Positions 2,388 through 45,274 of a stretch of 64,000 nucleotides of DNA are shown one piece after another. A program made the translations under genes and the position numbers. Position 1 is the first letter of the stretch, and each line of letters starts with the position of its first letter. The stretch comes from a virus, in IMG/VR virus record IMGVR_UViG_3300036861_001052, positions 74,415 through 138,414 of that record. One strand, written 5' to 3'. The notes beneath the pieces were generated by a model that saw only the letters and a list, made by a program, of their open reading frames with translations, made no database searches and was not told the origin of the DNA.

Positions 2388-3163
2388 CACCGACCATCGC
2401 GATTCTGAACCGGACCACGATCCTCGACGACGCGGCCTTTCATCCGGTCGTCTCCGCGCTTCAAAAGCAGGTCTCGGGAGACTTCGCGCCGCTCTGGAGG
2501 CGAGACGCCTCGCTCGTGCACGTGGCTAAGAGCGAGACGCCGCCTCCGGGAGCCTGGCAGGTCGTCGTCTCAGACACGATCGCGATGGCGGGCGCGCTCG
2601 GGTATCACGATTTCACGCATGCGGGCCTTCCGATCAGCAAGGTCGCGGCCAAGACTCACGGCAAGTGGACGGTGACGTTGTCCCACGAGGTGCTCGAGAT
2701 GCTCGGAGACCCCGACATCGTGAGGGCGGCGTTCATACAGACGAGCCCCTTTCGGGCGCTCGTCTACGCCTACGAGAATTGCGATCCGGTCGAGGACGAT
2801 CGCTTCGGCTACGACATCGACGGCGTGACTCTCTCGGACTTCGTGACCGAGGAGTGGTTCGAGCCGGGCAGGTTTGGTGTGAAGTTTTCGTTTCGAGACA
2901 CGGTCAAGCGTCCGCTGACGCTCGCGCCAGGCGGCTACATTTCTGTCTACAGGACGCCGGGCATCGGGCGCTGGATACAAGTCACGGCACGCGAGGACAC
3001 GTACGCCGTGCACGAGGGCAATGTCAGCGAGATCACGCGCATGTACGCCGGGGAGCAGCACGGCTCCTACACGAATCTCTACCGGAATCTCCCGAACGTC
3101 GGCTCCCGCCGCGAGCGCCGGAACCGGTCGCGCATCGAGTGGATGCGAAGCGACACCCCGTGA
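2384..3163 (+). CDS. Putative zincin-like metallopeptidase (HExxE variant)
   Basis: Motifs ALGYH, TLSHEVLEMLGDP and ENCDPVE; ATGA overlap with the upstream gene. Confidence 0.55.
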   Translation: MTPTIAILNRTTILDDAAFHPVVSALQKQVSGDFAPLWRRDASLVHVAKSETPPPGAWQVVVSDTIAMAGALGYHDFTHAGLPISKVAAKTHGKWTVTLSHEVLEMLGDPDIVRAAFIQTSPFRALVYAYENCDPVEDDRFGYDIDGVTLSDFVTEEWFEPGRFGVKFSFRDTVKRPLTLAPGGYISVYRTPGIGRWIQVTAREDTYAVHEGNVSEITRMYAGEQHGSYTNLYRNLPNVGSRRERRNRSRIEWMRSDTP

Positions 3164-3184
3164 GCTACTCGGCGCGGCCTGCCA

Positions 3185-14401: not shown

Positions 14402-16858
14402 GTGAGAGGCAAGCACAAAGCGTACGGTCGAGCGTTTCCAATCCGGGAAGCGGACGTCGGCTCGTACAAGGTAGCGCGTCACCGTCCCTATCGAGCGAAT
14501 CCGATGGGCGTGACGACGCTGTCGAGCGTCAACGGCCCGGGCGCGTATTCCGCGCGTGCGGCCTCGAGTGGGCTTTCCCGCGCCGAGCGTCTGCGGCGCG
14601 CGCGCCGGCTCATGGAGAACCGAAGCATGCAAGGACACAAGGTGCACAGGGCCAAGTTCGTACGGCGCATGAAGGCAAACAGCGGTCGGATGACCTCGAA
14701 CGCTGCCCGACGCCGCGCGGGCAAACGCCTCGCTGCGTTTCAGGCAGCTCGGCGTCGTGGGCTTTCGAAGGAAGCGGCGATGCGGAGCGCGTCCCGGAAG
14801 TTTCCGAAGAGTCGCCGGCGTGGCTACCGCCGAAACGAGGGACCGGCTCAGGTCGCTTCCCCCGCCTACCGGTCGGGCCACGAGCGGATCTACGGGAAAA
14901 AGGCTCAGCGAAGGCGCGCCGCCGCGGCAAAGCGGAAAGCGCATCGCGCCGAGGTCGCCGCGCGTAAGCGCGCTCGTAAGGCTGCCGCTCGCGCGAAGAA
15001 GCGCGCAGCGATGACGCCGGAAAAGCGCGCTTCGCTCCGAAAGCGCCGCCGCAGGGCGAGCTTTCCTAAGCAGTACAAGAAGGTGCGGGGCCGAAGGGGC
15101 AAGATGCACCGAGTGCGAGTGGCGTACGGACCGTACCGCCGCGCGCGCCTTTCCGATCCGAGGTCAGGCCGAAAGCGCCTCTCCTACACCTATCGAGGCA
15201 AACGCGGCAAACGCCGCAAGATTCCGCAGTGGGCCGTTGCCGGAGCAGTCAGTGCGCGCGACTACAAGACGTCGAGCGTGTACGGGCGCGCCCGGGAGCG
15301 GATCGCACGGCGTCGTAAACGTGCTGCCGCTCGCGTAGAGCGCAGCGGAGATGCGTTCGTTCCGAACGCGGGAGCAAGAAAAGTGGCAAGACGAAGAAAG
15401 CGAAAAGGGCACAAGCGTTCCCGCCGGGGACGTCGCAAGGTGAAACGGACGCGCGGTCGCGCGCGGCGCCGATCGGCGGGTCACACCGTCCGCAGGCGCA
15501 AGAGGCGCAAGTCAGCGAGCCGCCGGACAGCCCGGAAGCACCGTGCGAGCCCGCATCGCCGGAAGAAGCGTCGTGCGCACGCGAAGAGGCGTTCCACGCG
15601 CCGCCGGTCCAAGCGCCGGTCGCACCCGCGTCGGATCGGTCGCCGCAAGGTGAGGCGCCTGAGAAAAGGCATCTACCTGGTCGCGAACCGCCGTCGCCGT
15701 CGCTCGCGCCGCCGCTACGAGGAAAACCGCAGGGTCCGCCGGCATCGTCGTCGGAAGCTCGCGGCAAATCCGCGTCGCAGGCGTCGCTCGCGGCGTCACG
15801 TCGCAAACCGCAGGCGCCGAACGCATCGGCGTCGGAGCTACCGTCGTAACCGGAGCTACCGCCGTAACGGCTTCATGGGCGACTTGAAGACGCTCGCGAA
15901 GATGGGCTTCCTGGTCCTCGGCGGCTTCTTCCTCCACAAGGGGATCACGGGCGGAATCATTCGGGCGCTGACGTCTACGGACGCCTCGACCGGAGCGATG
16001 ACGTTCGCCTCGCTGCCGATGATCGGAGCCGACGGCAAACCGACGGTTCTCGCGACTTGGCAGAAGCCGCTCGTCGGAGGCCTGTTCGGCGGTCTCGGCA
16101 TCTTCGGGATCTCCAAGCTCCCGATGAAGTCGGACACCCGGAATGCGCTGTCAGCGGGCGTGGTGACGTCGTTCCTTCAGAGCCTCGTCCACACGATCCT
16201 GACTGTCGCAAACCAGCCGGAGGTCCTCTCCTATCTCGAGGGTTACCAGAACAGCGCAGCGTACTCGCTCCGCGGTACCCGAGGGAAACGGCGCCGTCAC
16301 CCGATGCGAGGCCTCGGCGTCGCACGGAACGCGACGTCGATCATGCCGCACTACGCACCTGTCGGACAGTTCCAGCAGGCCGCAGCCGGCATGGGCGAGT
16401 ACTTCGCGGCTCAGAGCGGCATGGGTGAGTACTTCGCGGGTCCCGGCGTCGAAGGCGTCGGTCACTACGAGAAGGCTGGCCCCTTGGCGCTTCAGCCCTC
16501 GACGAGCCGGATGGGTAACCTTCCGATCGACGACGGCATTCGCCCCGACTCGAACCTCGACCACGTGATGGATCTCGCGGAAAGCGCGGCCGGTCTCGGC
16601 CAAGGTTTCCGTCAGGCCGCCGCGGGAGTCGGGGCGGGCCCGGGTTACCGGCAGGCAGCTGCCGGTATGGGCGAGTACTTCTCGGCTGCCCCGCAAGACG
16701 GCGGCTACAAGGAGTTCTCGGTCCCGACGCAGTCGCAGTGGATCCCCTCGGGGCCCCTCTGGGCCGGCACGATGAGTGCCGACGCTGCGTACACGGAGAG
16801 CGAGCTCCCGGCTGGGATCCTCCAGGGTCCTGGCGGAAACGGAGTGCTCTCGGGCTGA
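14402..16858 (+). CDS. Arg/Lys-rich protamine-like core polyprotein with membrane segments and GMGEYF repeats
   Basis: About 490 aa of extremely basic N-terminus, three hydrophobic segments, C-terminal QAAAGxG and GEYF repeats; lies directly upstream of the capsid candidate. Confidence 0.75.
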   Translation: MRGKHKAYGRAFPIREADVGSYKVARHRPYRANPMGVTTLSSVNGPGAYSARAASSGLSRAERLRRARRLMENRSMQGHKVHRAKFVRRMKANSGRMTSNAARRRAGKRLAAFQAARRRGLSKEAAMRSASRKFPKSRRRGYRRNEGPAQVASPAYRSGHERIYGKKAQRRRAAAAKRKAHRAEVAARKRARKAAARAKKRAAMTPEKRASLRKRRRRASFPKQYKKVRGRRGKMHRVRVAYGPYRRARLSDPRSGRKRLSYTYRGKRGKRRKIPQWAVAGAVSARDYKTSSVYGRARERIARRRKRAAARVERSGDAFVPNAGARKVARRRKRKGHKRSRRGRRKVKRTRGRARRRSAGHTVRRRKRRKSASRRTARKHRASPHRRKKRRAHAKRRSTRRRSKRRSHPRRIGRRKVRRLRKGIYLVANRRRRRSRRRYEENRRVRRHRRRKLAANPRRRRRSRRHVANRRRRTHRRRSYRRNRSYRRNGFMGDLKTLAKMGFLVLGGFFLHKGITGGIIRALTSTDASTGAMTFASLPMIGADGKPTVLATWQKPLVGGLFGGLGIFGISKLPMKSDTRNALSAGVVTSFLQSLVHTILTVANQPEVLSYLEGYQNSAAYSLRGTRGKRRRHPMRGLGVARNATSIMPHYAPVGQFQQAAAGMGEYFAAQSGMGEYFAGPGVEGVGHYEKAGPLALQPSTSRMGNLPIDDGIRPDSNLDHVMDLAESAAGLGQGFRQAAAGVGAGPGYRQAAAGMGEYFSAAPQDGGYKEFSVPTQSQWIPSGPLWAGTMSADAAYTESELPAGILQGPGGNGVLSG

Positions 16859-16967: not shown

Positions 16968-17033
16968 CGGGACGACACCCGACCAAAACGGATCTTCCGG
17001 TCACCCACCCGTTTCCAAAGGAAACATACCAAC

Positions 17034-18614
17034 ATGGCAAAACTGACGAACGTCAGAGAGCGTGTGCATCACGCGGACGTTCGGTGAAAGCGAAAGCTGG
17101 TGCCCCTCGGCGGTAACGCCGGGGTGATAACTGGGTGAATCAAACCGTTTCGTGATGAGAATGAGAACTTCAGACACAGACATCGCCTGGCTTGCTGGAA
17201 TCGTGGACGGCGAGGGCTGCTTCTCCGTGAAGCGTCCCATCGTTCGCAAGACCTACAAGAAGGGGCGAGTGACGAGCTACCAAGTGTGGCTGGTCGTCTG
17301 TAATACGTCCGAGCCGATGGTACGTCGGGTCACGGAGATCTTCGGATCTCTCGGGATCGGGCACCAGCCGGTGAGGCGCGTCTGGAAGGGAAAGAAGGCA
17401 ACTCGGTGGCAGTACTGGGTGCACGTCGCGCGAAAGCACGAGCTCTTGCGTCTGACGGAACTCCTCCTGCCTTTCCTCGTGGCCAAAAAAGACGAGGCCG
17501 AGATCGTGCGCTGGTTCCTATCGAGGGCTTGCAGCACGAGGCAATACGTTCCCACTCTTCTCGATCGTACCGCGCTCGAAGCGATGGCCACGATCAAGCG
17601 ACACGGCGGGGAAGCCCCTGCTGAGGTGCGAGAGCTCCTTCGCGAGGTAATCCCGAGCCAAGCCGTTTCTGGGATCCGTGCGGCCCACGGATTGGAGACG
17701 GAAGGCGTAGAGACTAGGTCGGTGACTCCCAAGAATAACCCGACCCACGAGTGCCCGGCGCCCCTCCACTTGGTGGGGTGATGAGATAGCCCGACACTCC
17801 GGGAAACCGGAGAGCCCGCATAAACAGCGGGCATGACAGAAGCAAGCAGCCGTTTTACGACACGCTCATCCGAACCTCCGGTCTCGGCGGTTCCATCCCC
17901 AAGGTGAATCAGCGGACCTCGCTGTTCACGAACCAGGCTCGCCAGGACGACATCAACGCCCTGACGAACCTGCCGAACGGTTCGACGCTCCCGTCCGACC
18001 AGAGCCACGTGACGCTCGCGCTTCGCGTGTTCATCTGGTTCCGCAATCCGCAGATCCGCGCAAGCGGCTTTGCGAACGGTGCGATCAAGAACAACGGCGA
18101 CTTCTCCCAAGCGGGAGCGGCGGCGTTCTTCTCGCAAGGCGGAGTCGACCCGAACGGCGCGACCGCGGGCCCCGGCGCCTTCAACTACCCGGGCTCGATC
18201 GAGGACGTCTACCGCCTGTACTGGCAGTCGGAAGAGCAGCTTCACTGGAGCTACGGCACCGGTGACAAGTTCTCGATCACGAACATGCCGACGAAGTACT
18301 TCCCGGACGGCGGTGGCCTCTGGGGTGACCTCGGTGGCTCTTCGGATCTCATCCACTTCAACAACGGCACGCCGGACCACACGGCAATTCTCCGGCTCGC
18401 GCGCGCGATCCTTCTGCCTCCCCGGCAGAACATCAAGTGCGCCGCCGAGATCGTGCCCTTGCCCGACGGTGGAAACGCCCAGATCGCTGGATCGACCGTG
18501 ACCGGCAACGGCCGGAACATGCTGTCGCTCCAGGACAACCTGAACGCGACCGACGGGATCAACAAGGTGATTCAGTTCACCTTCGACGGTCTCTTCGCCC
18601 GCGACGTTCAGTAG
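17034..18614 (+). CDS. Intron-split candidate major capsid protein (exons 17034-17069 and 17847-18614; 267 aa spliced)
   Basis: SD-like AAGGA then MAKLTNVRERVH joins in frame to QPFYDTLIRTSG...VNQRTSLF. The product is beta-rich and soluble. Capsid identity is inferred from context. Confidence 0.6.
17070..17846 (+). ncRNA. Group I self-splicing intron
   Basis: 5' exon ends in U and intron ends in G. Q-like GGTAATCCCGAGCCAAGC (17646), R-like GTAGAGACTA (17707), S-like GATAGCCC (17785), P9 CTCCGG-GAAA-CCGGAG (17797). Confidence 0.85.
17152..17781 (+). CDS. Intron-encoded single-motif LAGLIDADG homing endonuclease
   Basis: AWLAGIVDGEGCF motif, and LLPFLVAKK near the end; the 3' end overlaps intron core elements. 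Confidence 0.85.
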   Translation: MMRMRTSDTDIAWLAGIVDGEGCFSVKRPIVRKTYKKGRVTSYQVWLVVCNTSEPMVRRVTEIFGSLGIGHQPVRRVWKGKKATRWQYWVHVARKHELLRLTELLLPFLVAKKDEAEIVRWFLSRACSTRQYVPTLLDRTALEAMATIKRHGGEAPAEVRELLREVIPSQAVSGIRAAHGLETEGVETRSVTPKNNPTHECPAPLHLVG

Positions 18615-18725: not shown

Positions 18726-19718
18726 ATGGCAAGTTGGGAACAGGTCATTCGAGACCTGCAGAACACGGCAGGCTTTGCCGCCGCAAAGGCGAAGGAAGCG
18801 ATCGACAAGGCAGGCCGAAACGAGAGCGCCCTCGCGCTCGTCCGGCAAGAGCTCGAACGCGAGCAGCGCTCCATGCAAGCGCTCGCCGACGCGCTCGAAA
18901 AGGTCCAGGGCCGCGGCGCGGGCTACGGTAACGGTAACGTCGGCGTCGACGAGCGCGTGCGCTACATCGAGTCGATCCCGGGTCGCAGGATCCCGTTCGA
19001 CTTCGTCGTGACGATTCCTATTTCTTCGAACTCGGTCTCGCAGGTCCAGGGCACGAAGACCGTGAGCCAGGACGGGCCGTTCGTGGCGGTTGCGCGCTAC
19101 GCGGCGTTTCAGTCCGCGTTCCAGTTTCAACGGGTAGACCCCGTCACGCAGGAGAAGGCGGTCTTTCAAGGACGCTCCTTCGGCCGTTTTCGTCCGATGC
19201 ACTCCATGTGGGACCTGAACGATGCCTCGACCGGCGTCTTTCAGCCGACGACCGGCATCGCTCAGCCGGGCACGGGCGCGCCGATCGTGGCGGCTCCCTC
19301 GAACATGTCGTCCTTCCGCACGATGGAAGGCGACTTCATCATCCAGATGCTGAATCAAGGCGCTGGCTACCCTCGCGACAATCAGGACGGCGGCATTCCG
19401 AGCGCCTGGTACTCCGAGAGCATCAACAGCCCCTTCCAGCTCGGAGCCTTGGACTTCTTCGAGCGCGGCGAGACGATCCAGTGGAAGGTCACGCCGACGC
19501 ACGTCAATAACCCGCCGGCAGGTAACCTTTCGGGTTACGCTGCGGGTGGCGTGTTCCCGTTCCTCGCGAGCCAGTACGACGTGCACGAGGGCATCAACGA
19601 CCAGCTCGATCCCGAGGCAACGAGCGATCCCATCACGAGGCTCCCCGACGGGATCTTGTGGATAGGGATGCACGGGATCAAGATCGTGCAGCCCCCCGGG
19701 CCGGTGAGGCTCACCTAA
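18726..19718 (+). CDS. Second candidate capsid protein (N-terminal coiled coil + beta-rich domain)
   Basis: GGAGG SD; alternating beta-strand pattern (PFDFVVTIPI, GPFVAVARY, IQWKVTP, LWIGMHGIKI). Confidence 0.55.
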   Translation: MASWEQVIRDLQNTAGFAAAKAKEAIDKAGRNESALALVRQELEREQRSMQALADALEKVQGRGAGYGNGNVGVDERVRYIESIPGRRIPFDFVVTIPISSNSVSQVQGTKTVSQDGPFVAVARYAAFQSAFQFQRVDPVTQEKAVFQGRSFGRFRPMHSMWDLNDASTGVFQPTTGIAQPGTGAPIVAAPSNMSSFRTMEGDFIIQMLNQGAGYPRDNQDGGIPSAWYSESINSPFQLGALDFFERGETIQWKVTPTHVNNPPAGNLSGYAAGGVFPFLASQYDVHEGINDQLDPEATSDPITRLPDGILWIGMHGIKIVQPPGPVRLT

Positions 19719-27756: not shown

Positions 27757-30513
<2,757 letters not shown>

Positions 30514-30564: not shown

Positions 30565-32043
<1,479 letters not shown>

Positions 32044-34396: not shown

Positions 34397-35760
34397 CGCT
34401 CCCCGGCGGATTCGAGGGTCTCGAGCGCTTCCGCGCCCCGAGCTCCATCCTGGAGGGCGACGGTAAGCCTCCGGATCCGACCGAGGCGGAGCTCGAGAGA
34501 GCTCTCGTCGCCCCTGGCGGCGACGCGCTCCTTCCCGCCGGCATCGTCTACCAGGCGGGCTACGAGCAGGCGGGAGACGGTCTCGCGCGCCACGCGCGCG
34601 CGCAGGCGCGCGCCCTCGCGCGCGCGGGGGTGGCCGTCTCTCTTCAGTCCCTTCCCACGTCACGCATGATGCTCGAGGACGAGATCGAGGAGAGCGTCCG
34701 GCGCGAGGTGCAGCACTTGCGCATGACCTCTGTTGGCTCGGCGCCCATCGCGATCCGGCAGATCATTTTACACAGCCACCGGTATCTCGAGAACGTGGTC
34801 GCGCCCGCGGGAGCGCGCCTCGCGGACTTCGACAACGAGATGAAGGTCTACCGATCGACCGTGGTCTACACGTCGTGGGAGCGGAGCACGGTGCATCCAG
34901 AGGTCGTGGAGATCTTGAACCGATGCGGCCGCGTCTGGGTCCCCTGTAACATGAACTACAACGTCTTCCGCAATGCCGGCGTTAGAAACGTGGACGTAAT
35001 CCCCTGCCCGTTCGATCCGGAGACGTCGCTCACGGCCGGCGTCGCCGCGCCGCGCGGCAAGGAGACGGCGCCCTCGGGCAAGCGCTTCTACGCGATCGGA
35101 AAGTGGGAGCCGCGGAAAAACTACCACGCGCTTATCGGAGCGTTCCTGTCGGCCTTCACGATGGAGGACCGGGCGTCGCTCTTTCTGAAGACGCACGAGT
35201 GGGGCGCATGGAAGGACTACCCGTCGATCGGCGAGAGCGTCGAACACTGGCTGTCGGATTTCCTGGTCAGGGATAACGGCTGGACGCGGGACAATTACGG
35301 TAAACGCTTGCGCGTCGTGACGAAGAAGCTCCCGGACGAGAAGATCCTTGCGATTCATAGGGACAACAACATCTACGTCACGTGCTCTCACGGCGAGGCG
35401 TGGGATCTCCCAGCCTTCGATGCGCGGGTCGCCGGTAACCGCTTGGTCTACACGGGCTGGGGCGGAGCCGAGGACTACGCCGCCGCGGAGGACATCAGGA
35501 TCCTCGTCGAGCACGGTAAGGTTTGTGAGCCAGTGCATCCGGGCTACGGGTGGGAGTCTGGCGCGGAGTGGGCGAGGTGCCCGGTTGCGGATATCATGCA
35601 TGCGCTTGTGGAGGCGGAGCCGCCGGCCCGGCGGATGCTCCCTCCTGATCTCTACCGGGACTTCGGAAGCCACGCCGTCGGCCGTCGTATGCTCATGAGC
35701 CTTAATAACGTGTCGGCCGGCACGGTAGAGGATCTTCTCGTGCAGGGAGGGTTCGGGTGA
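34393..35760 (+). CDS. GT-B glycosyltransferase (GT4-like)
   Basis: GLARHAR, YTSWE, VWVPC, FYAIGKWEPRKNY, YVTCSHGEAWDLPAFDA. Confidence 0.85.
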   Translation: MTLPGGFEGLERFRAPSSILEGDGKPPDPTEAELERALVAPGGDALLPAGIVYQAGYEQAGDGLARHARAQARALARAGVAVSLQSLPTSRMMLEDEIEESVRREVQHLRMTSVGSAPIAIRQIILHSHRYLENVVAPAGARLADFDNEMKVYRSTVVYTSWERSTVHPEVVEILNRCGRVWVPCNMNYNVFRNAGVRNVDVIPCPFDPETSLTAGVAAPRGKETAPSGKRFYAIGKWEPRKNYHALIGAFLSAFTMEDRASLFLKTHEWGAWKDYPSIGESVEHWLSDFLVRDNGWTRDNYGKRLRVVTKKLPDEKILAIHRDNNIYVTCSHGEAWDLPAFDARVAGNRLVYTGWGGAEDYAAAEDIRILVEHGKVCEPVHPGYGWESGAEWARCPVADIMHALVEAEPPARRMLPPDLYRDFGSHAVGRRMLMSLNNVSAGTVEDLLVQGGFG

Positions 35761-35861
35761 GGGGCGTGCTCGAGGGGTTCGTGCTACAGCACGTGTTCGG
35801 GCGACAGGCCACCCTGGCATTCATCGCCGATGATCTCGAAGCAGCCATTCAGGAGAACAAC

Positions 35862-36182
35862 ATGAAGCAGAAACTGGAAGAGCACCATAACCTCGACGCA
35901 GCTGGTAACCCGGCTGGAGGCCGCTCGAAGGGCGTCGGCTTCGACATCGAGTGGCAGGACGGCCCGCTCGGTCGAGGCGCCGATCGAAAAGACCCGAACG
36001 GCGCGTTCGTGGAAGGGATCGTCCAGGCAGCGATCGGGCGCCTGCACTTCTACCAGTCGTCGAAGTTTTCCTGCCGGGAGAACGCGATTGCGCTGACGCA
36101 CCTCGAGACCGCGCTTCTTTGGCTCGGCAAGCGCACTGCCGATCGGGAAGAGCGCGAAGTGGAGGGCACGAACGTCAAGTGA
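35862..36182 (+). CDS. tad1: Tad1-like anti-defence nucleotide-signal sponge
   Basis: WQDGP...NG...RLHFYQSSKFSCRENAIALTHLETALLWLGKRTADREEREVEGT matches the Tad1 signature from memory; AGGAG SD. Confidence 0.75.
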   Translation: MKQKLEEHHNLDAAGNPAGGRSKGVGFDIEWQDGPLGRGADRKDPNGAFVEGIVQAAIGRLHFYQSSKFSCRENAIALTHLETALLWLGKRTADREEREVEGTNVK

Positions 36183-36258
36183 ACCGCTGGGCGCTCGGGA
36201 CGGTGGGCTGCGTCGCGCTCGCACGCAGCAATCGCGTACCATGCAGGGAGCATCCCCA

Positions 36259-37640
36259 ATGAATCCTCGCATGAAAAAAGTCTGGCAGTACGTGAAGGAG
36301 CAAAAGGTCGGAGACGTCGTCGACCAGCTCCGTGACTACCTCGACAACGTCCGAGACGGCGCCGATCCGATCGAGGCCATGTCCGGCCACCTCTGTGGGC
36401 CCGACTGCTGGCACTGGGACCACATCGACGAAGAGCGGAAAGCAAAGCTCCGGAAGGCGCCATGGAATCGGAAACGAAAGGATCCGTGAAGGCCCGGGTC
36501 CTGGTCTACGAGGCCCTACGAGCTGCGTCGAGCGTGGCGCACGCTAGGCGCATTCTCGGGGTGACCCCGCTGGAGCTTCGGGCGCTCGTGAGAACGTATC
36601 GGCTGGACGCTGCGTTCGTGCGGCTCGAACGCGGCAAGTACTGGCAGCACCCGTGTTTCGTCAGCATGGACGGCAAGGAGCTCTTCGACGGAGTTCTCAC
36701 CGTGGTCTCGCGCGCTACGAATTCTCCCCACGGAAATGCGCGGTGGGAGGTCAAGTTTCGGGCGTGCGGGCACACGGACGTCTTCGAGGGGATCAGGCTC
36801 CGGGAGAAGCGGGTGGCGCCAAAGTGCCGGGTTTGCGTGGCCCTGGGCCAGCCCGGTGGCGTTTAAGGGTGTTTTACGTGCCGCTGATATTGCAAGCTTC
36901 GAGGCCGATGACCACCGAGCCGCCCGGCGACGAGGAAAAGTCCGAAGAGGAACGGATCTCGGACATTCTCGGCGAAAACCCCTTTTACGACGATCGAGTG
37001 GACGTGCTCTTGAACTGCCTTGCGTTCGAGCTCGACGAGCTCGGCCTGCCGGAAGAAAAGTCGAGGGAGCTCTACCGGGAGCTCCGCGGCGTCATCGACA
37101 AGTACGAGCTCCTCTTGCCCGAGAAAGGCGCCACGAACTGATGCCCGGTTTCTGTGACTCCACAATCGAAGATCTCACGGCCGAGACGCTCGTGGATTGC
37201 CGCCGCTGCGGGCACTCGCTTGCGGTCCACCGAGGGACCGTCCAGGAGTGCGTGCTCTGTCACTGCGTGTCGTTCGTGGGGGAGGACTGCCGGCCTCCGG
37301 TCGAGACGAAGACCGCGAAAGAGCTCGGCATGGTGGAGGCGAGTGGCGATGACGAGGCCGTATGGTGCGCGGTCGAGGACGCGGGGCTCACGGGAAAGCC
37401 GAAGAAGAAATGAGCGAGTGGCACGTCGTTCCCTTCGTTCAGAAGGTCCGGATGTACGCTCTCGCGAAGTTGAGCGGGCACGACCAATATCAGCCGACCG
37501 GAGAATTCGTCTGCACCACATCGGACATTGCTCGCGTCACAGACGATGACTGGCGCTCATCGCGATGCAGGACATATCACCGGTCGCGTGCAGTGGCGGA
37601 AGCGCACGCGCGCAAACTGAATGCGCGGAATCAAAAATGA
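36259..37640 (+). CDS. Run of five small hypothetical genes (36259-36489, 36486-36866, 36908-37141, 37141-37413, 37410-37640)
   Basis: Mostly overlapping start/stop codons; several Cys/His motifs. Confidence 0.55.
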
Positions 37641-38746
37641 CGAAGTCCGTGCGGCTCTACGGCTACCTCCATGGCGAATCGTCCTTCGCGCAGGTAACGC
37701 GCGGTCTCCAGCGGACGCTCGAGGCGATGGGCGAGCTCGCCGGGCTCTATCCGGTCGATATGGACCCGGAGCTCGCACCGAGAGAGCTCCGCGGCGGCGA
37801 GAGCGCGCCTCTCTCCTTGAACTGCGGCTCCCCCGAGGGACTTCTCCGTGCGCACCGCTCCGGCGATCACAAGGAGCACTGGCTGCTTCTCGCCCCGAAC
37901 AGCCAGGGCCTTCCGCATGGCTTCGTGGAGGGGCTCTTGAAGACGTCGGATATCTTGCCGCGCGGGACGCTCTCCGGAGGGATCCTCGCGCCGAGCCGGT
38001 GGGCGGCAAGCGTGTGCCAGGACGCGTTCCCCGAAAAGAAGGTCCTCGTCGCGCCGCACGGCGTCTCCCCCGAGGTCCACTCCGTGAATCCGAAGGATCT
38101 CGCGGCGAGCCGCCGAGACTTCAAGAACGGCCTCTTCGACGTCCTTCACATGGCGAGCACGGAGGCGGACAGGAAAGGCACTCGGCAGCTCATGCGCGCG
38201 TGGGCACACTTGAAAAGCCGACGGGAGCTACCGAGCGTGGCGCGCCTGCACATCATGATGAACCCGACGCACTGCTCGAAAGTGAAGTGGTGGGCAGCGG
38301 ATCTCGGTCTCTCCGAAAACGACTACAGCGTGGCCCCTGGCCTCGTCCACGATCGCTACCAGGTTGCCAATCTCTACCGGGCCATGCACCTCGTCTGTCA
38401 GCCGTCGCGGGCGGAGGGCTTCGGCCTGGTCCCGCTCGAGGCGCTCGCCTGCGGGACTCCCGTGGCGATCACGATCTCGACGGGGCACTCGGAGTACGCG
38501 TCGACGGGCCTTCCGGGCCTCATGGAGGTGCCCCACGGCCCCTTGGGTCCGATGGACGATTACCCCGGGTCGACGGCGCCCACGGTCACGGCGGAGGCGA
38601 TTGTCCATGCCCTTTGGAGTGCGTACGATAGGTGGGAGAGTCTCTCGGCGCAGGCAGCCGACAACGCCGCCCCACTCGCCGAGGAGTGGTCCTGGGAGAA
38701 AAAGAACCGCCCTGCCCTCACGAAAATGATCGCGGAGAGCCCATGA
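37637..38746 (+). CDS. GT-B glycosyltransferase (GT4-like)
   Basis: APSRW, APHGV, DRKG, CQPSRAEGFGLVPLEALACGTPV. Confidence 0.9.
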   Translation: MTKSVRLYGYLHGESSFAQVTRGLQRTLEAMGELAGLYPVDMDPELAPRELRGGESAPLSLNCGSPEGLLRAHRSGDHKEHWLLLAPNSQGLPHGFVEGLLKTSDILPRGTLSGGILAPSRWAASVCQDAFPEKKVLVAPHGVSPEVHSVNPKDLAASRRDFKNGLFDVLHMASTEADRKGTRQLMRAWAHLKSRRELPSVARLHIMMNPTHCSKVKWWAADLGLSENDYSVAPGLVHDRYQVANLYRAMHLVCQPSRAEGFGLVPLEALACGTPVAITISTGHSEYASTGLPGLMEVPHGPLGPMDDYPGSTAPTVTAEAIVHALWSAYDRWESLSAQAADNAAPLAEEWSWEKKNRPALTKMIAESP

Positions 38747-40470
38747 AAATGATTCTCAGCACCGGAGAGTTCGAGCAAGGAAAGAAGTTCTTCGAGGGAC
38801 TGAAGACGGCTTTCATAGGCGCCGGGATCCCCAAAGAGCTCTGGTATGGGTATCTCGTTGGCTTCATCTACGGGCAGTTCCGACAGACGATGAGCAAAGA
38901 AGAGGTCCGCAAGGCCTTCCTGGCGACGATCGCCGAGCTCGAGACCCAGTTCGACGAAAGTGCTCCGGAGGCGTGAAGGTAACGATGGCAGACAACGACC
39001 GAATCATCACGCTCTCGCACCGCCAGTTCCTCGAAGCGATCGGTGACTACCTCGCGAAGCACCGGCTGGCCCCGGACGGGCTCTACCACTTCGCTGTGAC
39101 CGTTGCGGCGGACAATGCCGTAATCGTCAAGATGATCAAGCAACCGGATCTCAGTGCGTTCGGGGACGATATCCCCACTACCGGGTAACGATGGGAACGA
39201 AAGTCATTCGAACGACGCCCGACCGTTGGCATGTATCCGTCACCGTGAACCCGACGACGTTTGCTCCAGATGATCCGGCGCGAGCCATGGCGCTGCATGT
39301 GGGGTGCACTTGCATCGTGCATGCGCAATACGTGCACGGCTCCGTTGTTGAAGTGGTCGAGCGGGCGCTTGAGGCGCTCGCTCTCTCGCCCGCGCTGGAC
39401 AACCTCGGCGTTTACGCGGCCACCCAGGGAATCTCAGTCGAGCCCGAAAGATAAAGGAGAAAACAACACATGTCCGACCCAGAACCCGCGACGGAGTCCC
39501 CCGAGGCAACCCCGGCCCCAGAGAGCGAGAGCGGCTGGCTCATCTATCACGAGCGTCCCGTGATGCTCCAGCTCCGACAGCCGTACATCGGCGTCACCTA
39601 CAACGCCAGGGCAGCGGACGGCGTCTACCGCGCGTCCATGAATGCCGAAGGGCACGTGCGCGCGAGTCCCATCCTGAGCGGAGTGCTCTTCGTGCGTCAG
39701 AGCGGAACGCCGAGCGGCGTCCTCTTGATTCTGAGAGTGCCAATTCCGGAGACGCACGACTTTACCCTCATCGCTCTTCATCCGGACGATGTGCTCTACT
39801 GCACGCACATCCACCAGGCTGATAGCCGCATCGTCACTCCGTGATCCTCGGCCGCACGAATTCGTTCCGGCGCTGGCTCTTCGATCGCGTCTCGAGCACT
39901 CCCTGGGCAACGAAGTCGATGTCGGATGCGGACGTCGAGCGCGCGGCCCACGAGCTCGGACTCGACGCGGAGTTTTTGCTCGAGGTGCGCGCCGAGACGA
40001 GGATCCGCCGGAACAAGCGCGGCTTTGCGGGACAGCTCAATGAAAAGAGGATGCTCTACCAGTACCATCTCTTCATGCCGGAGGTGGTCTGGAACGACTG
40101 GCACCGCGAGTGTGCATTCCGGGGCGTGGGAGGACCGATCCTACTTCGGAGTCTCATCCACGATTACCTTCTCGGCGACAGGGAGCCGCTCCCGGCAGGA
40201 TCCTGGTACTGGAAGGGCAAGCGCTACGAGATGGGCGAGAACAAGAAGAGATGGAAGTTTCTCGAGCGCGCGGCAATGCCCCATGGGGCCAGGCGAGCTC
40301 TGCGCGCGCGTGCGGAGCGGCTCGGCACGATGCCTACGGCGGTTGCCCGCGCGCTCGTCATCGAGGCGATGAGCGGGCTTCACAGGGACGTGCCGCTCGT
40401 CGAGACGGGGATGATGTTCGATGACGAGAGGCGATATTTGGCCCGGGTTCCGGGGGCGCTTGACCGGTAG
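38743..40470 (+). CDS. Run of five hypothetical genes (38743-38976, 38973-39188, 39191-39454, 39470-39844, 39841-40470)
   Basis: Tightly packed ORFs; the last has two ribbon-helix-helix-like segments (tentative). Confidence 0.55.
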
Positions 40471-40489
40471 GGCCCCTGCCGGTTAGCCT
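40460..40489 (+). promoter_or_regulatory. Sigma70-like promoter, leaderless
   Basis: TTGACC-18 nt-TAGCCT, with the ATG 7 nt downstream. Confidence 0.5.
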
Positions 40490-40496
40490 CTAGCGT

Positions 40497-40952
40497 ATGG
40501 CCATCGCCGTGGGCGACCGGGTACGACCGAGGCTGTCGAGCTCAGCGCTCGCCGCCTCCCGCCTGAATCCCCAGCCGCCGATACTCGGGGTCGTGACCAG
40601 GATCGTGGCGGGCGCCCCGAACCTGATCTTCGCGACCATCGCCGATAACGGCATCACGTGGTCGATCAACGCGAGCGCCCTCTCCCCGAACGGAGTCAGC
40701 GAAAGCTCGCTCGACCAGATCACGGCGCCCGATCCGACGATCCGCGACGCCTTCATCGACAAGGTCGTCGTCGGCTTTCGTTCGGCGATCTCAGATCCCC
40801 TCGATCTCTCCGAGCAGTACACGTCCGAGTACATCGGCATCGTCGTCGATGTCTACAACGTGAACGCCGTCGCGACCGTGCTCATCAAAACGCAGACGGG
40901 GGTCTTCTACGAGCTCCCCATCACGCGCGTCGCAATCCTGCCGTTTCGGTGA
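40497..40952 (+). CDS. Beta-rich protein (paralog of 40956..41438)
   Basis: Shared LxPQ, DNG, LD.I, F...VV and E(Y/F).G.V...Y motifs. Confidence 0.7.
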   Translation: MAIAVGDRVRPRLSSSALAASRLNPQPPILGVVTRIVAGAPNLIFATIADNGITWSINASALSPNGVSESSLDQITAPDPTIRDAFIDKVVVGFRSAISDPLDLSEQYTSEYIGIVVDVYNVNAVATVLIKTQTGVFYELPITRVAILPFR

Positions 40953-40955
40953 ACC

Positions 40956-41438
40956 ATGGCAGACGTACAAAAGGTCGTTGCGGCTCGCATTCAGGCGACG
41001 TCGCTTTCCGCCGTCCAGCAACCGAGCCTCCAGCCCCAGGGCCCGCGCTTCGGTAACATCATCGCCGAGGAGTCTAGCGAGCTCCCCCCGAACGAGATCC
41101 GGACCGTCCTCTGGGACAATGGCCTGGTGGACGACGTGGACGCCGACAGCGTCGCGGCGCTCAATCTCGATGTCATCGAAAATCCAGCGGCCGACGTCAT
41201 TTCGACCTTCGAGGGACAGGTCGTCCTTCGTATTGCGCCAGAGGGCGCCGTGCCGGGCGACGCGGCAGGCGGCACGAGCCGGGAGTTTTCCGGGCTCGTC
41301 CTCGCCATCTACAAGCGAACTCCGATCGAAGCGGAGGCGGGAAGCGGCGACGACTTCCTCCTCGTGCTCAATTCGTCGGGCACTTACTTCGAGGACCTCG
41401 CCGGATCTTTCACGGTGCTCCGAAACCAGACGCCCTAA
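40956..41438 (+). CDS. Beta-rich protein (paralog of 40497..40952)
   Basis: Same shared motifs as the upstream paralog. Confidence 0.7.
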   Translation: MADVQKVVAARIQATSLSAVQQPSLQPQGPRFGNIIAEESSELPPNEIRTVLWDNGLVDDVDADSVAALNLDVIENPAADVISTFEGQVVLRIAPEGAVPGDAAGGTSREFSGLVLAIYKRTPIEAEAGSGDDFLLVLNSSGTYFEDLAGSFTVLRNQTP

Positions 41439-44400
41439 AACGGCGCTGTCATCGCCGTCATCATGCGGAGCGGGCTCGGCATGACCTCGCTCGCGCTCCG
41501 GATGGGGCGGAGCCCTGCCTCGAAGGCGTTCCGGGTGAGGAGGCGCCTCGGTGGGGCGTTCGGCAGGAGCTCTTCGTCCTCGTCCTCGCCGCCGACGGAG
41601 AAGTAGGTCTGGGGCGCTTTGGGCGCCTCGAGCACGGCTCTTCGTGGGCCCCCCTCCCGCGAGACGACCACGGTCGGCCGGCGCCGCATGACCTGAATAT
41701 TGCCGCTCTCGACGGCAGATCGAGCGATGGCCTCGGTGACGTCCGGGCTCGGGAGGGCAATTTCTGCCCGGACGGAATCCTGGACGAGCCCTGCCTCGAG
41801 CACTTCGGCCGCTCCTGCCTCGTCGAGGCCCTCCTCGACGGCGATCCGGCGGAGGTCGTCCTCGCGGAGATCTTCGCTACTCCGGAGGATCCTGCGGGAG
41901 GCCTGCCGGAAGCCCGCCAGGTAGCGGAGGCGCGCCTTTTGTCCCGAGAGGCCGAGCTCGGCGGCGAGCCGCTTCTCGACTACCTCGGGGCAGGGAACGA
42001 TCCAGGCGATGTAGGAGAGCATGACCGAGTAGAGAAGGCTGTACTCACTCGAGCGCTCGCCGCCGCGCAGGACGGGGATCCCATGGCGCCGGACGTGCTC
42101 CCACATGCCGCGCGCCGCCCTCCGCATCACGCACTCCGAGTCCCGCCCGTCGTAGCGGCGCCCGAACTCCTCTCGGAACGCCGCCGTGTGCACGATGGTC
42201 CGCTTCTTCGTGTCGATCCGGAAGGAGTCCTTGTCGAAGAGCGTGCTCCGGAGAATGTTGGCGTCGACGAGCTCGACACTAGCCGATGGAAACGCCGCAC
42301 GCAGGAGCGCCTCGATGCGGGCGTCGAGGGGCCTCGGGAGAGACGGCCGCTCCACCTTCGGATCGCCGACGCCGAGTGCGGCGAGCCTTTCCGTGATGAG
42401 CTTGAGGGTCTCGCGCTCCCGCTCGGCCTCGTCTTTTTCTTTGGCGCGCGACGCCTTCCGGAGCGACTCGACGCTCTCGTAGTAGCCCTTGAGGAGCTCG
42501 CGGGCTTCGCTGACTTGGATCTTCATCGCCTCCTCGGCGAAGCCGACTTCGGCGGAGCGCTCTTTCTCGCGCGCCACCGACAGATCCTGCCCCGTGATGG
42601 ATCCGATCCATTTCAGAAACCAGGAAAACTCCTCCGGACTCTTGTCGTAGATGTCGCGCACGGGATCATCTGCGAGAAACCAATCCGGGAGCTCTTCGGC
42701 CGGGCTCACGCCGACGAGAGAGGCCTCGGCAAACTTCTCCATGAAGGCCGTCCACTCTTCGTCGTCCCGCTCGCTCCCACGCGGCCGCTCGATGTGCTCG
42801 AACGCCCGCACCGTCGTCGTGTAGCGCTCGGCGTTCTGCTCGAGCCAGCGGGCGAGGTAGTCGTCGTCGTGGGCGCGGATGTCTTTACCGACCCGCGCTT
42901 CCGCATCGAACGGCACGAACCGAAACTTCCCCTTCGTGCCGCGGGATAGGCCCCGCTGGATCTCCTGGAACGCTCCCCACCACCGGTCGAGCCCGAAGGC
43001 TTTCGTCGGCGAGGTCTTCATCCACTCGGCGCGAAGAGCCTCGACTTTGGCAAACAGCGTGGGCGCTTTGATCTCCGAATAGAGCTGCTCGCCCGCGAAG
43101 ACCGGCAAGGGGGGCACCGTGACCGTCTTCGTCTTCCCCTCCTTGTCCCGTACGGTGACCGTGACTTCTCCGTGCTTGGAGGCAGAGCCGCGCGCAAACC
43201 ACGGAAGGAGCGAGAGCTCGCCGAGGCCGTAGCTCAAGGGCCACGGGTCGTAGTGCTCGCCGAGCCAGTGGTCTGCCTGCACCATGTCCTTGCCACGGCG
43301 CTCGTAGAGCGCGACCGTGCCAGGGCTCTTTCCCTGGCGGGGCTCGACGCGGGTGAAGTGGATCTTTTCTCGCGCTTCGTCGCGGTGCGAGCCCGGTGGG
43401 GCGCCGATGTCCGCGTACGCGTAGAAGGGGGAGCCGCGGGAGATGTCCTTCTTCGGCGGCGCGGGCGGCTCCTCGTCCTCGGCGATCGCGACGAGGCCTC
43501 CCTCTGTCGCGGGCTCGGGCCCCATCTTCGGCGACTCGGCGACGAGAGTCGGATCGGCCTCTTCCCTGGCTTGGACGCCGTAGGTCTCGATGACTCGCGC
43601 GGGGGGAGGCACGGCCGGCGGCGTCCCGGCAGCCGCCCCGCCGGCAATGTACTCGAGGATCTCGTTTTGGCCGGACAGCACATCGAGCTCGCGTTCGTCT
43701 TCGATGTAGCCCTCGGTCACGACCACGCTCGAGTGACCGAGGATGCTCTGGATCTCCCGGATGGGTTTCCCCCGCTTCGACATCGCCGTCGCGGCGAAGT
43801 GCCGGAAGGCGTGGCTGTAGACGAGGCGGCTCTCCTCTGCCGAGAGGCCCGCTTTCTCGGCGATGCGCTTTAGAAGCGCCCGGAGACACCACCTCGACAT
43901 GGGCCGGCTGTGAGCGGGCCGCACGTTGGGTTTCATCTCCTGATACTGCGAGGGGGAGTTCGCTCCCCAGAAAGCGACCGGAGGAAAGAGCGGCGCGTCG
44001 GTCTCTTCGGAGAGCGCCCGGTAGCGCCAGGCTGCGCCCCCGCGCGGGACGTAGAGCTGCCCCTTCGGATCCTCGGACTGAGCGCCGGGGGGCGCCGCGC
44101 GCGCCGCGAGGGCCGACTGAAAGTCGTAGAGCGATCGGAGCGCGTACGGCGGGTAGGGAAGCCTGTGATGGACGCCGCCCTTCCGGACGAGCTCGACCAT
44201 GACGGGAGCTGTGCGCGGCTCGAGCCAGCCGGGCGTCCTCTCGAGCTCGGTCGCCTTCGGCTTCTCGCGAGTGAGCCGGCGGGCCTCGGTGGCTCGGACT
44301 CCCGTGAGGACCAGAAACCAGAAGATGGCGGCGTCGCGCTTTTCGACGAGCGAAGGCCCGCCGGTCGCGGCGAGGAGGCGCTCGACTATCGCCGGGGTGA

Positions 44401-45274
44401 GCCTGGGGCGCCGTGCGCGCGCGGCGCGCTTGTCGGCAGAGAGGCCGCGGGAGACTCGCGCCGAGATCTCGTCGAAGACGTTCGTGCGAACGAGGGGCTC
44501 TACGTCCACGTCGGCGCGGGCGAGCTCGGTCCATAGGCGGGAGAGAGCCGCGAGCCGGAGCGCAATCGCCGAGCGTCCGAGCGGCCGCGGCACGGGCAGG
44601 CTGTAGATGAAGATGTCTTCGAGCGGGACTTCTTTCGTGCCGCCGCCGTCGCGCGGCACGGTCACGGTAAAGACGTCGATGCCGATCTGGGAGTTCTCCT
44701 TACGGAGCTCGGAGAGGGTCGGCGACCGGACGAGGAGATCGTGGAGCACCATGCGGCCGAGCTCGCTCGCGAGCCAGGTCCGGAGGCCGACGCCGCCCTC
44801 GTGGGCGCGCGCGAGCCCCGCCGGAAGGCCGGCGAGGATGCTCTCGAGATCGGCCGAGCCGAGAGACTTCACTAGATCGTAGAGCGCCAGCCGCTCGGGC
44901 TGGTCACCGTCCCTGAGGCGCTCTCCCTCGAGCGTGAAGGATTTGGTCGCGAGCCACTCGACGTAGTCCTCGGCGTCCTTCCGGCTCACCTCCCGCGGCA
45001 GGACCACCCGGCGCTTGACCGTTGCGCTCCACTCGAAAAATTCCGCGATGGCGCGGCCGTACTCCTCCCTGGTCCGGGGTGAGTACCTGCCCACATAGGA
45101 GCTGTAGCGGCCGCCCGGCGCGTCGGGGCCGGCGATGCGGCTCAAGATCTCCGCGTACCTCTCGGTGACCTTGCGGCTCCCCTCGCCAAAGGCCTCGGTC
45201 CACCGCTCGAGAGCCTCCGGGGTGCGCTTGCCCCTCGCGAGCGCAAGCTCCGGACGGTTCCGACCGAGCATCAC
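41435..45274 (-). CDS. Very large tyrosine recombinase/integrase (1279 aa)
   Basis: SAM-like SPRTREEY; catalytic R (LTGVR), K (RKGG), HAFR, LGH and Y (TEGY); C-terminal extension of more than 700 aa. Confidence 0.9.
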   Translation of the reverse strand: MMLGRNRPELALARGKRTPEALERWTEAFGEGSRKVTERYAEILSRIAGPDAPGGRYSSYVGRYSPRTREEYGRAIAEFFEWSATVKRRVVLPREVSRKDAEDYVEWLATKSFTLEGERLRDGDQPERLALYDLVKSLGSADLESILAGLPAGLARAHEGGVGLRTWLASELGRMVLHDLLVRSPTLSELRKENSQIGIDVFTVTVPRDGGGTKEVPLEDIFIYSLPVPRPLGRSAIALRLAALSRLWTELARADVDVEPLVRTNVFDEISARVSRGLSADKRAARARRPRLTPAIVERLLAATGGPSLVEKRDAAIFWFLVLTGVRATEARRLTREKPKATELERTPGWLEPRTAPVMVELVRKGGVHHRLPYPPYALRSLYDFQSALAARAAPPGAQSEDPKGQLYVPRGGAAWRYRALSEETDAPLFPPVAFWGANSPSQYQEMKPNVRPAHSRPMSRWCLRALLKRIAEKAGLSAEESRLVYSHAFRHFAATAMSKRGKPIREIQSILGHSSVVVTEGYIEDERELDVLSGQNEILEYIAGGAAAGTPPAVPPPARVIETYGVQAREEADPTLVAESPKMGPEPATEGGLVAIAEDEEPPAPPKKDISRGSPFYAYADIGAPPGSHRDEAREKIHFTRVEPRQGKSPGTVALYERRGKDMVQADHWLGEHYDPWPLSYGLGELSLLPWFARGSASKHGEVTVTVRDKEGKTKTVTVPPLPVFAGEQLYSEIKAPTLFAKVEALRAEWMKTSPTKAFGLDRWWGAFQEIQRGLSRGTKGKFRFVPFDAEARVGKDIRAHDDDYLARWLEQNAERYTTTVRAFEHIERPRGSERDDEEWTAFMEKFAEASLVGVSPAEELPDWFLADDPVRDIYDKSPEEFSWFLKWIGSITGQDLSVAREKERSAEVGFAEEAMKIQVSEARELLKGYYESVESLRKASRAKEKDEAERERETLKLITERLAALGVGDPKVERPSLPRPLDARIEALLRAAFPSASVELVDANILRSTLFDKDSFRIDTKKRTIVHTAAFREEFGRRYDGRDSECVMRRAARGMWEHVRRHGIPVLRGGERSSEYSLLYSVMLSYIAWIVPCPEVVEKRLAAELGLSGQKARLRYLAGFRQASRRILRSSEDLREDDLRRIAVEEGLDEAGAAEVLEAGLVQDSVRAEIALPSPDVTEAIARSAVESGNIQVMRRRPTVVVSREGGPRRAVLEAPKAPQTYFSVGGEDEDEELLPNAPPRRLLTRNAFEAGLRPIRSASEVMPSPLRMMTAMTAPF

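Follow-up and report, generated by a model that had tools for sequence, protein, structure and literature searches.

We analysed a 64,000-nt stretch of virus DNA (hereafter the window; positions 74,415 to 138,414 of IMG/VR record IMGVR_UViG_3300036861_001052), the right-hand part of a virus record of 138,414 bp, which carries direct terminal repeats and has a completeness rating of 100%. A conserved gene on its plus strand is split after codon 12 by a 777-nt insert, and we put at roughly nine in ten the probability that this insert (17070-17846) is a mobile group I intron with an I-CreI-type endonuclease, lodged in a 267-codon gene for a jelly-roll, probably shell-forming protein. A first-pass annotation, made from the sequence alone, had proposed a group I intron with a LAGLIDADG endonuclease in a probable major capsid gene. 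The split gene is laid out as follows (window coordinates):

~17018-17023, plus strand: Shine-Dalgarno (SD)-like site of the AGGA type, read from the sequence
17034-17069, plus strand: exon 1; ATG start, 12 codons (MAKLTNVRERVH), final base T (U in RNA); N-terminus as in 25 of 26 fetched homologues and in intron-less DNA
17070-17846, plus strand: group I intron, 777 nt, terminal G at 17846; supported by covariation, with a weak Rfam RF00028 match
17085-17087, plus strand: in-frame TGA of the exon-1 frame, five codons inside the intron
17847-18614, plus strand: exon 2; 255 codons plus stop; conserved jelly-roll, capsid-like protein with 573 homologues

The split gene and its junction

The second frame is open from 17790 to 18614, behind a stop codon at 17787-17789, and a sequence scan found no in-frame ATG, GTG or TTG between that stop and a GTG at 17904. 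The part of exon 2 before that GTG (17847-17903) lacks its own start codon and codes for residues that never vary in the family (Q13, P14, F15, D17, R21 and G24 in 53 aligned homologues), and the full protein therefore needs the 777 nt to be removed at the RNA level. Excision of 17070-17846 joins GTGCAT to CAGCCG and gives 12 + 255 = 267 codons. A search with the exon-2 product returned 573 homologues, and 25 of the 26 that were fetched have exon 1 joined directly to exon 2 (252-271 residues, contiguous through ...RVH-QPFYDTLIR...), with the N-terminus MAKLTNVRERVHQPFYDTLIR (seen in intron-less homologues of 266-271 aa) and the pattern M[A/S]K...RER[V/I]HQPF; the exception, P0016, has an unrelated N-terminus. 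Loci retrieved with the protein as query comprise seven viral contigs and five from genome bins; in 12 of 12 the DNA of the gene runs through uninterrupted, and nhmmer detected the intron core in none. The splice boundary could slide by up to 2 nt (CA is shared), and 17070-17846 is the only placement that leaves both a U at position -1 and a terminal G. Exon 1, the junction after codon 12 and the 267-residue product thus stand as first annotated: intron-less homologues run contiguously through RVHQP rather than starting at the GTG at 17904.

In unspliced RNA, the start codon could yield a peptide of 17 residues at most, so that the full protein would depend on splicing; in-frame stops of this kind are usual for group I introns, according to the available part of PMC3073962. 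The same stop rules out an intein, since the exon-1 frame runs into it. The 5' leader is conserved in relatives, most of which have AAGGAG at the position of the SD-like site. No sigma-70-like promoter was found near the gene, and the sole terminator-like match lies on the minus strand within the intron and scores below the shuffle mean. An apparent hairpin within exon 1 (17043-17056), compared across 13 loci, is a mostly codon-determined palindrome and was not counted as covarying. For annotation, the split means that gene callers overlook exon 1 and report a truncated 236-residue protein, or nothing, for a hallmark gene of the lineage, an error expected to recur in every intron-bearing relative.

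Intron fold, guide sequence and insertion sites

The predicted RNA elements are the following:

17066-17069, plus strand: P1 5' strand, the last 4 nt of exon 1
17096-17103, plus strand: internal guide sequence; GCUG at 17096-17099 (P10) and GUGC at 17100-17103 (P1)
17105-17124, plus strand: P2 hairpin, 8 bp, GUAA loop; compensatory changes in 8 of 8 pairs
17131-17136, plus strand: P3 5' strand, pairing with 17753-17758; 100% of cells paired, two compensatory pairs
17145-17149, plus strand: 5' strand of a helix termed PX, pairing with 17602-17606; closes an insertion bearing the open reading frame (ORF) between J3/4 and P4
17607-17706, plus strand: P4-P5-P6 domain; P4 17607-17611/17651-17655, P5 17617-17626/17637-17647
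Within 17607-17706, plus strand: P6 17657-17659/17704-17706, P6a 17663-17669/17695-17701, P6b 17674-17680/17686-17692
17710-17716, plus strand: P7 5' strand, pairing with 17787-17792; bulged A17711
17717-17745, plus strand: extra hairpin between P7 and P3' (P7.1-like), 6 bp; 6 of 6 pairs compensatory
17753-17792, plus strand: P3 3' strand (17753-17758), P8 (17759-17764/17775-17780), J8/7 and P7 3' strand (17787-17792)
17797-17832, plus strand: P9 (17797-17802/17807-17812, GAAA loop) and P9.1 (17814-17819/17827-17832)

Relatives of the intron came from 24 loci with close relatives, fetched using an alignment of 31 endonuclease homologues (L009 and L098 are one 297,749-bp contig, about twice the size of the window genome). 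In 24 of 24, the endonuclease intron lies inside a homologue of the capsid-like gene (28-57% protein identity). We assessed the fold by aligning 19 introns, 18 of them distinct, to a structure of 81 pairs in 13 helices, with P7 pseudoknotted against P3, and by comparing it with 500 shuffles and with versions whose pairing partners were slid by 1-3 columns. Standard pairing was found in 96.5% of 1437 cells, against 81.2% in the shuffles and 35-46% in the slid controls, a comparison in which the structure is favoured over its slid versions by having been derived from one of the aligned sequences, and in which the sequences are related. Compensatory double changes were numerous all the same, in 47 of the 81 pairs (28.9 in shuffles), and none of the 500 shuffles came up to any of the five measures used. 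The helices that covary are P2, P3, P6, P6a, P6b, P7, P7.1, P8, P9 and P9.1, while PX is paired in 96.7% of cells, with three of its five pairs compensatory; P4 is invariant and hence uninformative, and variation in P5 is almost all wobble (one compensatory pair). By this architecture, supported across 18 distinct introns, the insert is a group I intron, the class first proposed for it, and group II and archaeal bulge-helix-bulge introns are ruled out.

The covariance-model search suggested at first annotation returned RF00028 (Intron_gpI), aligned over the consensus P4, P6, J6/7-P7 and P7' elements. At the Rfam gathering threshold there was no match in the window or the rest of the genome. 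The introns of ORF-bearing relatives that passed an E-value limit of 0.1 also scored below the gathering score of 50 (24-36 bits); the model cannot span the 450-nt insertion between P3 and P4. One homologous gene (L090) contains three group I introns, of which one bears an endonuclease and two are ORF-less, of about 240 nt each (2506-2747 and 2930-3173, after approximately residues 144 and 205); the ORF-less pair scored 77.4 and 76.8 bits, above the threshold.

The guide sequence fits both exon ends. In P1, GUGC pairs with GCAU at the end of exon 1 through U17069.G17100 at the splice site and three Watson-Crick pairs, and in P10, GCUG pairs with CAGC, the first four bases of exon 2. All 22 introns compared have a U at the 5' splice site paired with a guide G, and a terminal G; P10 spans 3-6 bp and covaries with the exon-2 codon. 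In 21 relatives, the intron follows CA(R)CCGU; the guide pairs through GCGG with CCGU and, through the 5 nt that precede GCGG, with the opening 5 nt of exon 2, tracking whether the codon there is for Trp, Tyr or Phe (UCUGG/CCAGG, UCUAC/GUAGG, UCUUC/GAAGG, UUUGG/CCAAG).

The window intron lies 7 nt upstream of the site used by these 21 relatives. Its guide occupies the same alignment columns as theirs, with different letters that match its own site. Read at the relatives' site, the intron would end in U and the product would contain HHAVYD instead of the invariant HQPFYD, and the upstream position is therefore taken as the real site. In the intron tree, the window copy falls inside the common-site clade (99/99 against two introns from other sites), in a placement compatible with either a basal or a nested position, and with a 7-nt shift in either direction. 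A search of viral contigs with a 14-nt guide pattern for further introns at the window's site gave at least 118 matches, and those listed were unrelated and had no intron core. The window copy also has about 20 extra nt at its 5' end, in which 17070-17082 (13 bases) is largely complementary to the end of exon 1 (17051-17064).

In spliced or intron-less sequence, both insertion sites lie between the arms of an 8-bp inverted repeat (17058-17065 and 17860-17867, GAGCGTGT / ACACGCTC), whose centre is offset by 2 nt from the site used in the relatives. L001 and L002 retain the repeat and other relatives have it in degraded form, and it may result from the codons alone instead of being a pseudo-palindromic target of the endonuclease.

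Splicing in vivo would presumably proceed as follows. Once the pre-mRNA had folded into P1-P10, the guide at 17096-17103 would bind the end of exon 1 through U17069.G17100 and, at a later stage, the start of exon 2. Attack by an external guanosine after U17069 would free exon 1, whose own attack after G17846 would create the junction GUGCAU-CAGCCG in an mRNA that encodes the full protein.

Several properties of the window copy weigh against this account. RF00028 gave 18.4 bits (E 0.051 for the 1.15-kb stretch searched), well under the gathering score. P5 has one U x C mismatch, and P7 has an A17713 x C17790 mismatch, picked out in the first-pass annotation and unique to the window, either of which might lower activity; relatives have A-U (13) or G.U (4) at this pair, and the neighbouring pair changes from U-A to C-G in four. 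The mismatch adjoins G17712-C17791, which is invariant together with the bulged A17711 in 18 of 18 introns and which, with its adjacent bulge, we take from the Tetrahymena intron to be the guanosine-binding site. P1 and P10 are just 4 bp each, and local folding predicted a hairpin across the 5' splice site, with the site in its loop, in competition with P1. Speculatively, this hairpin either competes with P1 or is the scar of an event that moved the intron, possibly an aberrant break repair. The endonuclease, for its part, matched Pfam families below their cut-offs (PF14528, 18.7 bits against 22.5; PF00961, 17.3 against 23.1).

A low Rfam score and a P7 mismatch seen nowhere else might be expected of a decayed element that does not splice, in a genome copy that is defective or that starts the protein at the GTG at 17904. 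We consider this very improbable, given intact exons with 93% identity to intron-less proteins, a guide that fits both exon ends, an intact endonuclease ORF, and a complete genome that was seen twice. Moreover, a start at 17904 would drop 43 residues, including eight invariant positions, and an A.C pair could plausibly stand in for the G.U found at that position in four relatives.

The distribution of the intron points to mobility. It is missing from the closest relatives of the window gene (L001 and L002, whose protein is 92% identical) and occurs in distant ones (28-57%), and its core occurs as a single copy in the 138-kb genome. Related ORF-bearing introns occupy other positions in the gene: one at L109 (1425-2210) follows ...SDQT, with GCGUCU pairing with AGACGU, and one at L107 (approximately 290-1110; L108 likewise) follows ...QAP plus 1 nt, with a guide that fits its own exon (RF00028, 35.6 and 29.6 bits for L109 and L107/L108, respectively). 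Across the lineage, the capsid-like gene has at least six insertion sites, and the sporadic distribution makes it well supported that the intron is a mobile element. In addition, five cluster representatives (P0228, P0230, P0236, P0243 and P0254; 361-512 residues) match part of the family profile with their N-terminus alone, and may result from gene prediction that ran past an exon into another intron.

The endonuclease and its overlap with the ribozyme core

The intron ORF and the stretch it shares with the ribozyme are as follows:

17152-17781, plus strand: LAGLIDADG homing endonuclease ORF, 209 codons from GTG 17152, stop TGA at 17779-17781
17602-17781, plus strand: dual-coding stretch, 180 nt; the last 60 endonuclease codons (stop included) coincide with PX 3', P4, P5, P6/6a/6b, P7 5', P7.1, P3 3' and P8

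Assignment of the enzyme to the LAGLIDADG family, as first annotated, was borne out by a motif in which A12, W13, L14, A15, G16, D19, G20, E21 and G22 are invariant in 31 of 31 aligned endonucleases. The family profile matched I-CvuI (6.3e-8), I-MsoI and I-CreI (9e-4) among PDB sequences, over residues ~6-121, and PHROG 5046 was matched at 2e-14. These results support a predicted I-CreI-type, single-motif endonuclease, which one motif and a domain of about 150 residues suggest is probably a homodimer. Approximately 100 homologues have the same length, and a 206-aa form starting at ATG 17161 is on record as P0121; the enzymes P0122 and P0123 are 76% identical. A query with the single protein found no relative in viral contigs, and an alignment query did find relatives; LAGLIDADG relatives occur in 204 stretches in IMG/VR.

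The ORF was first described as running through the ribozyme core, and its last 60 codons do so from P4 to P8. The P3 5' strand (17131-17136), followed by GAAU, lies upstream of the ORF. In an ORF-less intron of L090, P3-GAAU-P4 is continuous with nothing between, and in the ORF-bearing family PX closes a loop of about 450 nt at the point between J3/4 and P4, with the ORF starting 3-12 nt past the PX 5' strand. Blocks of C-terminal peptide that are kept even in enzymes of 33-40% identity coincide with core helices and joints. DNA identity is 92-96% in core helices and joints vs 59-64% in loops and peripheral stems (L5, P6a/b, P8), and identity at third codon positions rises from 0.60 to 0.75 within the overlap. 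An endonuclease ORF that overlaps the core is a described phenomenon (PMC3984707; PMC3073962, both cited from the parts available).

Functionally, the endonuclease presumably cuts intron-less alleles of co-infecting relatives, and repair would copy the intron in. Its gene lies in a hairpin inserted between J3/4 and P4, from which it reads 180 nt into the core ('core creep'). Because the ORF reads through the ribozyme core, translation of the endonuclease and folding of the ribozyme should exclude each other, and an antagonism between translation and splicing is likely on these grounds.

The relation between enzyme and ribozyme could also be the reverse, with a real intron depending on the LAGLIDADG protein as a maturase, or on a host factor, so that output of the capsid-like protein would hinge on the endonuclease having been translated first. 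The P7 and P5 mismatches, the short P1 and P10, and a 60-codon endonuclease tail whose length is conserved over about 100 homologues are consistent with such dependence, and a maturase-like bacterial LAGLIDADG protein is on record for the 23S intron of Thermotoga neapolitana (in the available text of PMC3984707). However, conservation of the tail is explained by constraint on the RNA, given the contrast in identity between core or joints and loops or peripheral stems, and we judge dependence on a protein improbable.

We tentatively read the window copy, at somewhat below even odds, as a re-targeted member of an undescribed intron family that colonises one shell-like gene at six or more sites. 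It would have moved 7 nt upstream with both halves of its guide rewritten, possibly leaving a repair scar, and would carry its ORF between J3/4 and P4 with 180 nt of core overlap. If true, this would be a natural system in which endonuclease translation and the splicing of a capsid mRNA exclude each other. Searches of open-access literature for capsid-gene introns, for ORF and core overlap and for large tailless jelly-roll phages gave nothing on the intron family or the lineage, and the intron family is apparently undescribed.

The interrupted protein, its virus lineage and known systems

The capsid-like protein belongs to the second best-conserved gene type of the virus family, with 59 invariant columns in 53 sequences. 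It had no match in Pfam, PHROG or PDB sequences and no homologue in 50,697 GenBank phage records, and a profile search of 1.84 billion representatives returned 117 clusters, none linked to a named family. A protein atlas gave sub-threshold leads to the PRD1 P2/P3 families (0.77). An AlphaFold model from the 53 sequences (predicted local distance difference test, pLDDT, 76; predicted template modelling score, pTM, 0.77) is beta-rich, with a jelly-roll beta sandwich. An alignment-independent search of 48,161 chains placed a capsid chain of Sulfolobus polyhedral virus 1 (SPV1), 6oj0_T, at the top (Z 5.9, root-mean-square deviation 4.0, 135 residues). Two results detract from a capsid identity: Foldseek on the model gave nothing at E <= 0.001 (best E 0.4 in PDB and 0.15 in BFVD), and matches to capsid proteins were weak, with no chain at Z >= 8.

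The most likely reading of the modelled fold, probable without being close to certain, is a shell protein of jelly-roll type from a tailless bacterial virus. The label of major capsid protein given at first annotation holds in part, in that the product is predicted to be a jelly roll with the SPV1 capsid chain on top, whereas its capsid identity is left less firm by a Z of 5.9 with other jelly rolls within 1 Z unit. Those neighbours are tumour necrosis factor (TNF)-family ligands (5.3-5.7; 4-1BB ligand 5.7), a virus protrusion domain (5.4), PRD1 vertex protein P5 (4.9) and carbohydrate-binding modules. Together with the absence of any Pfam, PHROG or PDB sequence match, they leave room for a different jelly-roll virion or surface protein (penton, spike or receptor-binding) in place of the major capsid protein. 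We regard this as rather unlikely: the top match of the model is a capsid chain, the neighbouring 330-residue protein points to the same chain (from a poor model), few proteins of the lineage are as well conserved (573 homologues), its gene follows directly after that of an arginine-rich 818-residue protein, and no HK97-type capsid, portal or terminase was found among the 138 ORFs. The neighbouring gene (18726-19718) is the next one downstream; the beta part of its product matched 6oj0_T best (Z 6.0), on a model with a pLDDT of 54, and is a lead only. The upstream gene (14402-16858, plus strand) encodes a protein whose first two thirds are extremely rich in arginine and lysine and whose C-terminal part is hydrophobic and glycine-rich; it had no family match in Pfam or PHROG.

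The genome has a guanine plus cytosine (G+C) content of 65%. The endonuclease also occurs, with identical sequence, on a second contig of 138,462 bp, and we take the virus to be live because of this second occurrence and the complete record with direct terminal repeats. PHROGs searches of the 138 genome ORFs gave no terminase, portal, HK97-type capsid or tail tube match, and did match peptidoglycan hydrolases, DnaB, RNase H and collagen-like proteins. Peptidoglycan hydrolases point to bacterial hosts. Genome bins with the homologous gene are labelled Pseudomonadota, Pirellulales (2), Pseudomonadales and Methanomicrobiales, labels that are uninformative on the host. The contigs fetched with the capsid-like gene span 63-140 kb (all but one 111-140 kb), with one further contig of 298 kb. 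The lineage is apparently one of large, apparently tailless bacterial viruses that is undescribed.

Elsewhere in the genome, no tRNAs were found at genome positions 1-76000. Six proteins carry collagen repeats (Pfam Collagen), encoded at window positions 27757-30513 and 30577-32043 (plus strand) and at genome positions 34836-42641 (minus strand); a PHROGs label of 'tail fiber' on these proteins stems from the repeats, in a genome that has no detectable tail genes. A 1279-residue protein (window 41438-45274, minus strand) contains a tyrosine-recombinase (phage integrase) domain at approximately residues 230-530 and large unmatched regions.

Knowledge of how group I introns work is unchanged by this finding. 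Three features are worth recording, namely the 7-nt shifted site with its rewritten guide, which is new here, the ORF hairpin between J3/4 and P4, and the 180-nt dual-coding stretch. In the intron family, the natural covariation of P1 and P10 is unusually clean, a pair of insertion sites that lie 7 nt apart and have fitting guides bears on how introns change sites, and a very long stretch that is both protein code and ribozyme core is a test case for the 'core creep' idea.

A LAGLIDADG intron in a capsid gene had been called less usual than phage introns in other genes, and the claim of rarity is trimmed by a precedent and by the 204 IMG/VR stretches with LAGLIDADG relatives. Mycobacteriophage LittleE has a probable group I intron and an I-CreI-like LAGLIDADG gene in its major capsid gene, with splicing shown by reverse-transcription PCR (RT-PCR), and Tuc2009 is cited alongside as a further phage capsid-gene intron (Pope et al. 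2013, PMC3706429, from the part of the article available). As described there, the LittleE intron resembles that of the window: it is probably of group I, measures about 0.8 kb, splits the capsid gene of a phage whose genome is rich in G+C, follows a U at the end of exon 1 and ends in G, carries a LAGLIDADG-type endonuclease, and occurs in some members of the phage group only. LittleE differs in that its endonuclease gene lies on the opposite strand, its capsid is that of a tailed phage, and its splicing was demonstrated by RT-PCR and N-terminal sequencing; compared by description, the window ORF lies on the sense strand, has 180 nt in common with the core and belongs to an intron that begins 36 nt past the start codon.

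Among enzymes, the homodimeric I-CreI, I-CvuI and I-MsoI (PDB 5a74, 3fd2 and 1u0d; chloroplast 23S rRNA introns) share with the window enzyme one LAGLIDADG motif on the N-terminal side and a group I intron as host element. The window enzyme is a distant match (best E 6.3e-8) and differs in having some 60 further residues as a tail that the ribozyme core encodes, in its bacterial virus host and in its protein-coding target gene. The RF00028 model likewise aligns with the window intron at P4, P6, J6/7-P7 and P7', whereas the 450-nt P3-P4 insertion lies outside the model.

The closest parallels for the overlap are the T4 td intron (I-TevI) and the 'core creep' examples of Edgell, Chalamcharla and Belfort (2011, PMC3073962, in the part available), in which, as in the window, the ORF enters core helices, an in-frame stop lies just past the 5' splice site, and a conflict between ribosome and ribozyme folding is expected. 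The td enzyme is GIY-YIG, whereas that of the window is LAGLIDADG. The table in that part of the article gives overlaps of 0-81 nt for ORFs that enter from P1, P6a or P8 loops, whereas the window ORF enters from a PX-closed loop and overlaps by 180 nt, more than twice the largest value in the table. Under the 'core creep' idea, read-through is expected to be longer when stop codons are scarce, as they are in this G+C-rich genome.

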